Of a DNA stretch of 12,765 bases, positions 973 through 1,669 are shown piece after piece (within the stretch, counting starts at the first letter, position 1; the number at the start of each line of letters is the position of its first letter). Origin of the DNA: a virus (lineage: Duplodnaviria; Heunggongvirae; Uroviricota; Caudoviricetes); IMG/VR virus record IMGVR_UViG_2721755658_000004, one strand, 5' to 3'. The translations under genes were made by a program, and so were the position numbers. The notes under the pieces are model-generated. The model worked only from the letters and a program-made list of their open reading frames with translations. It was not told where the DNA came from and did not search any database.

Positions 973-1480
973 ATCGTATTTCTTGTGTCATTAATTGTTT
1001 GATGTTCAGATTGTTTTCCTCGCGGGCTGGCGCGCCTCAGAAAGTAAAGCTTGTTGACAGGGGTAAACGTTCGGCAATAATTTTCTGCCGCATGCGGGTG
1101 TTGCATAAAACGTGCTACGTTCCTTTATCGACAGGTCAGGTCACCGCTCACCCGCCGACGAGAAAGCAACACTGACATGCTAAAGCAAAAAATAGATGAA
1201 TAAGTTGAGTTGTGCATATGTAGCCTGACCGTCACAAAGTATATGGTGTCTGTACCAGTAAGATGATGGCCGGACTCTTTAAAAACGAGCTGACCTGCAC
1301 AATACAGGATGGACTTAGCAATGGCTGCTCCTGGCACATAGCAGACCAGAGACACTGGCGTAAAGCCATGGAGGATCGGTGGGAGGAGGTAAAAATCCTC
1401 TCATGCAAAAAATACGCAAAATCGATAACAGTTGGAAATAATTCAATACTCGCACTATCGGAAGTTCACCAGCCAGTCGT

Positions 1481-1525
1481 AGCACGTTCTTGCATATGAC
1501 GTGGCTACGGGTTTCGAGACCGACC
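1481..1525. repeat. Imperfect direct repeat A (about 45 bp), partner of 2502-2551; resembles the 3' end and 3' flank of the pin gene
   Basis: agcacg-ttcttgcata-tgacgtg-gctacgg-gtttc...ccgacc versus agcacg-atcttcttgcata-cgacgtg-ctacgg-tttc...ccgacc; hand alignment only (roughly 85-90% identity over the ~35-bp core, with one 3-nt indel). Confidence 0.5.
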
Positions 1526-1640
1526 CGATCATCAAACGAAACATAAAATTAGCTCACATTATGAGGAAAGGTATCTTTTTGCGCTATGTAAATTCAAAGG
1601 GTTAGCCTCATTTTCCCGATGGCTTTCTCAACACTACTGG

Positions 1641-1669
1641 TTGTGAGCCCTTGCAATGTTCATTAATAT
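1641..1669 (+). promoter_or_regulatory. Candidate sigma-70 promoter for the GIY-YIG gene (-35 TTGTGA, 17-bp spacer, -10 TAATAT)
   Basis: Hexamers at 1641-1646 and 1664-1669 with a 17-bp spacer, about 33 nt upstream of the ATG at 1702; sequence pattern only. Confidence 0.3.

Follow-up and report, generated by a model that had tools for sequence, protein, structure and literature searches.

A three-piece mosaic without a supported gene at a probable cargo-slot border of an Escherichia coli prophage

The interval 1107-1650 lies between flxA and a gene for a GIY-YIG protein in a 12,765-nucleotide stretch of Escherichia coli prophage DNA (IMG/VR virus record IMGVR_UViG_2721755658_000004; this whole stretch is called the window here, and all positions refer to it unless another genome is named). 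Comparison with E. coli K-12, phage lambda and related genomes shows the interval to be a mosaic of three blocks, and the coding evidence shows that it holds no supported gene. We consider it probable that the interval is non-coding mosaic DNA bordering a cargo slot of a defective e14/lambda-like prophage, where it would combine a weakened terminator with a recombination joint. The first piece (1107 to ~1345) would be the tail of a flxA-ydfV block whose reading frame has been cut. The second (~1308-1514, + strand) appears to be a lambdoid module made of a dyad stem-loop, a body of ~60 nt and a GC-rich hairpin. The third (1516-1701) is the putative leader of the defence gene itself, with a weak promoter. 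An initial annotation of this DNA had noted a repeat ("repeat A") and a dyad in the interval; it missed that these are two stem-loops of one module, and that the interval is a joint of blocks of different origin. As the question was posed the finding is ordinary, a recombination joint without a gene. What is new, and of modest novelty, is that repeat A and the dyad belong together, in one lambdoid module that is nearly ubiquitous, unannotated and absent from Rfam.

The lambdoid module and its stem-loops

The module is 83-84% identical to positions 24162-24333 of phage lambda, and the lambda homology spans 1308-1510 of the window. The lambda counterpart sits between ea31 and ea47, with its sense strand that of the leftward transcript. 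Two sizes of the module were found, a core of ~100 nt and a long form of ~180 nt, the latter present in lambda and in the window; the 25 distinct long-form variants are conserved from ~1336. The core lies at 1412-1519 (+), where a covariance model scores 117 bits (E = 2e-22) and the sequence is 87% identical to the family consensus. A blast search against this consensus matches 1415-1514 and also 2496-2536. The module is very widespread; a match to 1340-1520 is present in 5383 of 5426 complete E. coli genomes (~99%), at a median of 3 places per genome. Copies were gathered by pattern scans of the one-genome-per-species and IMG/VR collections, the pattern being a 22-nt anchor inside the module body, which gave ~170 copies and 86-92 distinct variants. 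The core is sharply bordered. Its flanks in ~166 copies fall into 18 classes upstream and 29 downstream, which occur in 50 combinations. In the commonest context (42 of 140) a DinI-like ORF (open reading frame) ends no more than ~10 nt from the core. This prophage protein is only about 46% identical to the presumed sequence of E. coli DinI. Neither the window copy nor the lambda copy is preceded by a dinI gene. A decayed dinI gene was considered as the origin of the long form and rejected, as tblastn with the prophage DinI-like protein returned noise only. We note that many matches in non-enteric assemblies (Streptomyces, Pseudomonas, Enterococcus, Vibrio and others; loci L010-L050) are lambda contamination; the contigs are of low coverage and identical to phage lambda, and some are ~48.4-48.5 kb long.

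Searching Rfam 15 at the gathering threshold gave 0 matches in the window and nothing relevant in the lambda, Qin and phi458 loci, where the only match was IS009, inside tfa genes (lambda, Qin). Relaxing the search to E <= 10 over 1000-1750 gave CssrB as the best sub-threshold match, at 19.6 bits against a threshold of 76. The Rfam models of AgvB, AsxR, Esr41, STnc100 and DicF match neither the window nor lambda nor K-12 Qin. Identity with the small RNA (sRNA) PasB was rejected, the PasB probe sequence being different or absent, as was identity with two further sRNA candidates of enteropathogenic E. coli (EPEC), neither of which contains the core. The core sequence is not printed in the searchable literature nor in the supplements of Tree et al.

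The terminal hairpin at 1477-1510 (+), with arms UCGUAGCACG...CGUG(G)CUACGG, has a folding energy of -16.8 kcal/mol (z = -2.1). It is the first copy of repeat A, whose existence the initial annotation had correctly recognised: 1487-1503 matches 2511-2527 at 94% (repeat families D4 and D5). Across the module family the hairpin has the consensus CCGCAGCACG-loop-CGUG(U)CUGCGG; it is retained in nearly all of 90 variants, with a mean of -17 kcal/mol. Covariation was counted on an alignment of 54 sequences with the structure specified by hand, because bulges and indels were misaligned in the raw MAFFT alignment, from which RNAalifold did not recover the terminator. Such a structure favours itself, yet the controls in which partners were slid remained far lower, with 91% of cells paired in the specified structure and 22-55% in the controls. 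Five of the 10 pairs have changed on both sides, and none of 500 shuffles reached the observed score. The hairpin is maintained by compensatory substitutions and is under structural selection.

What follows the hairpin is more variable. At least three T are found in the next 6 nt in 51 of the 90 variants, many of which read GCGGTTTTTC. The K-12 copy ends in GCGGUUUUUC and the window copy in ACGGGUUUCG, while lambda reads GCGGCUCUAC and the U-run is absent. The window tail, GUUUCG, has three U only, too few for a U-run, and a simple terminator scan does not report it. The K-12 Qin copy folds with z = -3.2 and the window copy with z = -1.1. The combination of terminator hairpin, U-tail and conserved single-stranded region expected of an Hfq-type sRNA can be recognised in the K-12 copy and most others, conservation of the body being in part a product of the search pattern, and is weak in the window.

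A second copy of repeat A is found at 2498-2543 (+), including its T-rich tail UUUCAUUUAU. The covariance model scores it at 28.5 bits, and its hairpin, CCGCAGCACG...CGUGCUACGG at 2498-2533, folds with z = -3.9 on the + strand and -4.3 on the - strand. This copy separates the cargo gene from the convergent pin gene, and its tail overlaps the pin stop codon (2536-2538). The same junction of hairpin and pin also follows full modules in other phages. A partial third copy, TTGCATAAAACGTGCTACG at 1101-1119 (family D4), consists of the loop and 3′ arm only and is 89% identical to 2514-2532; no stable hairpin is found there, the fold of 1080-1125 having z = +0.46.

Two further stem-loops lie upstream of the hairpin on the + strand. 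The dyad reported earlier is real. It occupies 1379-1404 with the stem GUGGGAGGA/UCCUCUCAU and folds at -13.3 kcal/mol, with z = -3.5 on the + strand and -1.8 on the - strand. The stem is present in most of 19 long-form variants and is kept mainly in sequence; its G-U pairs favour an RNA of the + strand. It covers a Shine-Dalgarno-like GGAGG and the first two bases of an ATG at 1403. The other stem-loop, SL1, has its arms at 1430-1435 and 1469-1474. The family form is GGCUGG/CCAGCC; one pair shows a compensatory change from C-G to A-U, and there are several G-U pairs. In the window SL1 has one mismatch and one G-U pair, and several module copies carry changes that break it. With only UUU after the hairpin, and the mismatch and wobble in SL1, the window copy is probably weakened and a leaky stop.

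Experimental evidence on transcription of the module comes from K-12. The Qin copy lies at MG1655 1,632,469-1,632,571 (+), between the end of Qin and ynfT-ydfK. The curated Term-seq table of Adams et al., which covers three conditions, lists 'orphan' RNA 3′ ends at MG1655 1,632,571 and 1,632,574 (+) and prints their flank as ...CAGCACGTTCTTGCATAAGGTGTGTCTGCGGTTTTT, a hairpin followed by TTTTT (PMC7815308, Supplementary file 1). These ends fall at the U-run of the K-12 copy; both the strand on which this homologue of the module is transcribed and the place where its RNA ends are therefore as predicted. Another 'orphan' 3′ end is listed at 1,632,744 (+), 170 nt downstream of the module and upstream of ynfT (PMC7815308).

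Coding potential and the ydfV stump

The initial annotation had described the interval as lacking a convincing gene, and this was borne out. The ORFs it listed are exact: 73 aa at 954-1175 and 78 aa at 1263-1499 on the + strand, and 76 aa at 1125-1355, 58 aa at 1232-1408 and 56 aa at 1315-1485 on the - strand. They are short (56-78 aa in the interval) and overlap one another. None of these five, nor K-12 YdfV, nor the small lambda ORF, has a match reaching the curated cut-off in NCBIfam, PHROGs or Pfam.

Alignment to K-12 Qin showed homology over 590-1345 that ends abruptly at ~1345. The near-identity runs from the flxA stop through the ydfV-flxA spacer and ydfV codons 31-101. A remnant comprising the 3′ 71 codons of ydfV (b1565), almost identical in DNA, was thereby located at 1125 to ~1345 on the - strand. 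The full frame of 101 codons is not present; the ATG and first 30 codons are replaced, and the frame in the window runs on into unrelated lambda-like sequence. In K-12 the first 30 codons overlie the divergent relB promoter region, and the two versions of the frame therefore differ exactly at the junction. A search of 5.8 billion proteins found only 23 clusters of YdfV homologues, all from Escherichia or Shigella and 75-100% identical. The clusters range from 50 to 139 aa with variable N- and C-termini, and the only Pfam family among them is PF07151, on one chimeric cluster of 99 aa that covers 48% of the query. The flxA-ydfV block has 1 occurrence in 50,697 phage records, in a Qin-like phage with the K-12 arrangement. 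The K-12 Term-seq data list no RNA 3′ ends in the ydfV region. To judge from these comparisons, ydfV is an orphan ORF created by junctions and is probably no gene. The segment from 1107 to ~1345 reads as hitch-hiking DNA of the flxA block, such as Qin-type phages carry in their nin region.

In near-identical genomes the NCBI pipeline has annotated an 83-aa 'hypothetical protein' at 1125-1376 (-) that starts with ATT; no ATG, GTG or TTG opens this frame. The pipeline also places a 'capsid protein' pseudogene of 27-29 codons at 1411-1497 (-), across the hairpin (NZ_CP021726.1, NZ_CP034784.1). This call is probably spurious, with an unsupported frame, and was probably propagated from a mis-annotated phage ORF. 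Annotators should call neither ydfV-like nor 'capsid' fragments here.

On the + strand a dead ORF of 12 codons (MQKIRKIDNSWK*) was read from the sequence at 1403-1441. What stops it is a C-to-A change at 1440, present in few copies only (the window and locus L006). Two frames are open through the module core, where a 63-aa ORF is sometimes annotated in lambda. Translation of a small protein from ATG 1403 was considered and rejected, neither start nor frame being conserved: the ATG is ATA in 7 of the 25 long-form variants and is absent in the dinI-context class, and several copies carry 1-nt indels or TAG/TGA at a TGG codon. A leader-peptide attenuator was also rejected, there being no conserved small ORF upstream of the terminator.

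Promoters, the cargo slot and the role of the module

The left boundary of the interval had been drawn at a flxA promoter, which was misplaced. Alignment to K-12 puts a promoter of the FliA (sigma-28) type, TAAAGATT-N11-GTCGATAG, at 946-972 (-), outside the interval. The FliA consensus is taken from class 3 flagellar promoters. The -10 element (946-953, -) reads GTCGATAG in the window and GCCGATAG in K-12, T having replaced C; this change in the conserved GCCGATAA motif might weaken flxA expression. A genomic-SELEX peak for RpoF has been reported within the ydfV-flxA spacer (PMC5493296). A strong sigma-70-like site, TTGACA-16-AATAAT (11/12), was found by promoter scan at 1054-1081 (+), where K-12 is identical. 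It faces into the interval, antisense to ydfV, and is the only site of at least 9/12 near it; no sigma-70-like site of at least 9/12 occurs between 1107 and 1701. The sigma-70 promoter earlier assigned to the GIY-YIG gene does exist as a site, TTGTGA-17-TAATAT at 1640-1668 (+), read from the sequence, but it is weak (8/12) and falls below the scan threshold. A sigma-54 promoter at TGGCAC (1336-1341) was tried and rejected, the sequence having the wrong spacing to any GC element.

The GIY-YIG gene occupies 1702-2475 (+) and is assigned by Pfam (LEM-3_GIY-YIG) and by the annotation of relatives. Its product matches the PADLOC PD-T4-3 model over the full length (E = 2.2e-140, residues 1-256 of 257), by which the gene is identified as the anti-phage defence gene PD-T4-3, a LEM-3-like nuclease. 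Homology breakpoints indicate that the leader at 1516-1701 (+) travels with it. Genomes whose cargo is DUF262 or DUF4145 diverge from the window at 1511-1516. In O157:H7 and in enterotoxigenic E. coli (ETEC) H10407 the same GIY-YIG cassette is found in other contexts, with the match starting at 1505-1508.

In related genomes the same slot holds a DUF262 type IV restriction enzyme or a DUF4145 protein. Across the module family the + strand cargo that follows is more diverse still: besides PD-T4-3, the DUF262 type IV restriction enzyme and DUF4145 it includes EcoRII, NleG, an IpaH-type E3 ligase, a CdtB-like nuclease, a GGDEF protein, acyltransferases, lambda ea47 and ydfK. The other group of downstream neighbours consists of convergent tail-fibre, tfa/assembly or pin genes. 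In the window pin (DNA invertase; 2536-3090, -) is the fixed right border of the slot. At several loci a full module lies on one side of the cargo and a partial second copy, ~1 kb away, on the other. By the evidence of these flanks, the module marks the border of a variable cargo slot beside the tail-fibre module. It is found in the lambda b region and at the cargo-slot border of most E. coli lambdoid and e14-like prophages, and can serve as a sequence landmark for locating defence and effector cargo genes. It is also a candidate new prophage RNA and a candidate homology patch driving cassette exchange. Two loci were observed to carry two full-length module copies in the same orientation 1.6 kb apart (L097, 10652-10758 and 12254-12360; L130, 3086-3192 and 1484-1590). 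The second copy has diverged (47.5 bits), a sign that cargo slots may be stacked.

Exchangeable effector loci next to tail-fibre genes were reportedly described by Tobe et al. in 2006. The right end of K-12 e14 (stfE-pinE-mcrA) resembles the window in having a single cargo gene beside pin and the tail-fibre module, mcrA there and PD-T4-3 here. It differs in that the cargo of the window converges on pin and has a hairpin copy on either side; the module is absent from K-12 e14 at pinE-mcrA. Intrinsic terminators are said, by Juhala et al. in 2000 (as cited in PMC4104026), to lie at the borders of 'moron' or cargo genes in lambdoid phages. The module is like them in that a GC-rich hairpin and U-run end an inserted unit between convergent units (cargo and tail-fibre or pin), and in that 3′ ends have been mapped in vivo at the K-12 copy. 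It is unlike them in that ~100 nt with a conserved 60-nt body recur at many unrelated cargo borders and in lambda, whereas ordinary terminators form no conserved family. The window copy departs further from an intrinsic terminator, having lost most of the U-run.

We propose that the module would stop + strand transcription before it reaches the cargo gene. The source of this transcription would be the dinI-like gene in the commonest context, and in the window the source could be the 1054-1081 promoter or read-through. Since the same ~100-nt sequence is found at many cargo borders, and the hairpin is repeated at 2498-2533, the module may also act as a homology patch for the exchange of cargo cassettes. 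Several points weigh against this proposal. The ~60-nt body is far more conserved than a terminator needs, which the proposal leaves unaccounted for. The conservation is in part ascertainment bias, because the 22-nt anchor used for collection sits inside the body. Terminator activity in the window is uncertain because only three U follow the hairpin and the overall fold is no better than that of shuffled sequence (z = -1.1). The lambda hairpin is probably non-terminating because it lacks the U-run (GCGGCUCUAC). The putative role as a recombination patch is deduced from the way the flanks are reassorted.

How strongly the 60-nt body is conserved also allows a reading in which the module is itself a regulatory RNA. 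It would be a prophage sRNA of ~100-180 nt, often processed from the 3′ untranslated region (UTR) of a dinI-like mRNA, which binds Hfq via the terminator and reaches host or phage mRNAs via its single-stranded body, the window copy being partly disabled. We regard this as possible but rather unlikely. The highly conserved body lies beside the terminator, SL1 shows its compensatory and G-U pairs, and the K-12 copy both folds well and has discrete 3′ ends (PMC7815308). Lambdoid prophages are moreover rich in sRNAs (PMC4104026). The layout has a counterpart in Klebsiella, where the 3′ UTR of chromosomal dinI gives rise, by processing, to the Hfq-dependent sRNA DinR (PMC10907235); the module core, in its commonest context, likewise follows directly after a dinI-like stop codon and ends in the terminator of that gene. 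The likeness is one of layout; the pairing region of DinR is Klebsiella-specific. The module also resembles the prophage sRNAs of pathogenic E. coli (AgvB, AsxR, Esr41, STnc100, PasA-D), which are short, multicopy and terminator-ended and, like it, have conserved positions in lambdoid prophages. Those sRNAs, however, lie near PR′ and the lysis genes or inside structural operons and are largely pathogen-restricted, whereas the module is in 99% of E. coli genomes, K-12 included. No Rfam family matches the module, it is neither PasB nor either of the two other EPEC candidates, the EPEC tables list nothing assignable to it, and its sequence is in no paper searched. No promoter of at least 9/12 lies inside it, no processing site was identified and the upstream contexts differ. 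SL1 is broken in several copies, and the bias in the collection of the bodies applies here too. A broader version, in which the ~100-nt module is an undescribed prophage RNA family of Hfq-type regulators whose DNA doubles as the standard joint for swapping defence and virulence cargo beside the tail fibres, seems to us a little more doubtful.

Two other readings place function elsewhere in the interval. The whole of it could be a long 5′ leader of PD-T4-3 that starts at the 1054-1081 promoter, with the hairpin at 1477-1510 as a leaky attenuator. This is the only strong promoter-like site and it faces PD-T4-3, the promoter of the cassette is weak at 8/12, and read-through of the window hairpin is plausible because its U-run is poor. 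The cassette, however, works from 1505-1508 onward in other contexts that lack the upstream block and must thus carry a promoter of its own. The 1054-1081 promoter, identical in K-12, belongs to the flxA-ydfV block, which is followed there by no defence gene, and the region homologous to antisense ydfV has no 3′ ends in the K-12 Term-seq list. We consider the long leader improbable. It is most unlikely that one of the small ORFs is a real gene, whether the 83-aa YdfV-like frame co-transcribed with flxA or the + strand ORF at 1403 as found in relatives. K-12 lists ydfV as a protein, the NCBI pipeline annotates the 83-aa ORF in near-identical genomes and the 71 codons shared by K-12 and the window are nearly identical. 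This near-identity of the DNA reflects recent spread rather than selection. Homologues are confined to Escherichia and Shigella among 5.8 billion proteins and have variable termini, there are no significant domain matches, and the 83-aa form lacks an ATG, GTG or TTG start. The position of the K-12 N-terminus over the relB promoter region makes the frame a product of the junction, and the + strand ORF is stopped in the window and not conserved elsewhere.

We therefore return to the mosaic of three pieces, which also accommodates the suggestions made initially, namely a regulatory region, a decayed gene or a small RNA. Each of these fits one piece and none fits the whole interval. A regulatory role suits the hairpin at 1477-1510 and the leader at 1516-1701 but not the rest. 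A decayed gene suits 1125-1345 as a ydfV stump, with the reservation that ydfV itself looks like an orphan ORF. For a small RNA the mapped 3′ ends of the K-12 copy provide indirect support, while the window copy is degraded.

Genomic setting and neighbouring repeats

The window begins with an IS1 end (1-394), followed by flxA (590-922, -), the interval, PD-T4-3 and pin; fragments of tail-fibre and assembly genes lie beyond pin. The GC content is 42-47% throughout. A unit of 4228 bp at 390-4619, containing flxA, the interval, PD-T4-3, pin and the tail-fibre fragments, is repeated in tandem at 4618-8847 with 0 mismatches. Because the duplication is exact, the interval recurs identically at 5335-5878 (+4228). 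Inverted IS1 copies at 1-394 and 8843-9236, 100% complementary over 394 nt, flank the duplication. This arrangement is absent from every complete E. coli genome in the collection, and the tandem duplication either arose by amplification very recently or is an artefact of assembly. In complete genomes of relatives that are 99.7-99.9% identical over 1000-1750, the block adjoins the pao operon and is part of a remnant with e14-like baseplate and tail-fibre genes.

Two further repeats were observed around the cargo gene. A 26-nt inverted repeat has arms at 2216-2241 and 3095-3120 that are 85% complementary; by our estimate ~0.02 such pairs are expected by chance. The first arm is inside the PD-T4-3 coding sequence and the second directly upstream of the pin start codon, at the position where an invertase crossover site would be expected. 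A 24-nt stretch at 1652-1675, just upstream of the PD-T4-3 start, recurs at 10024-10047 with 88% identity. The duplicated unit does not include this copy, which lies where a - strand ORF (10019-10480) has its 3′ end.

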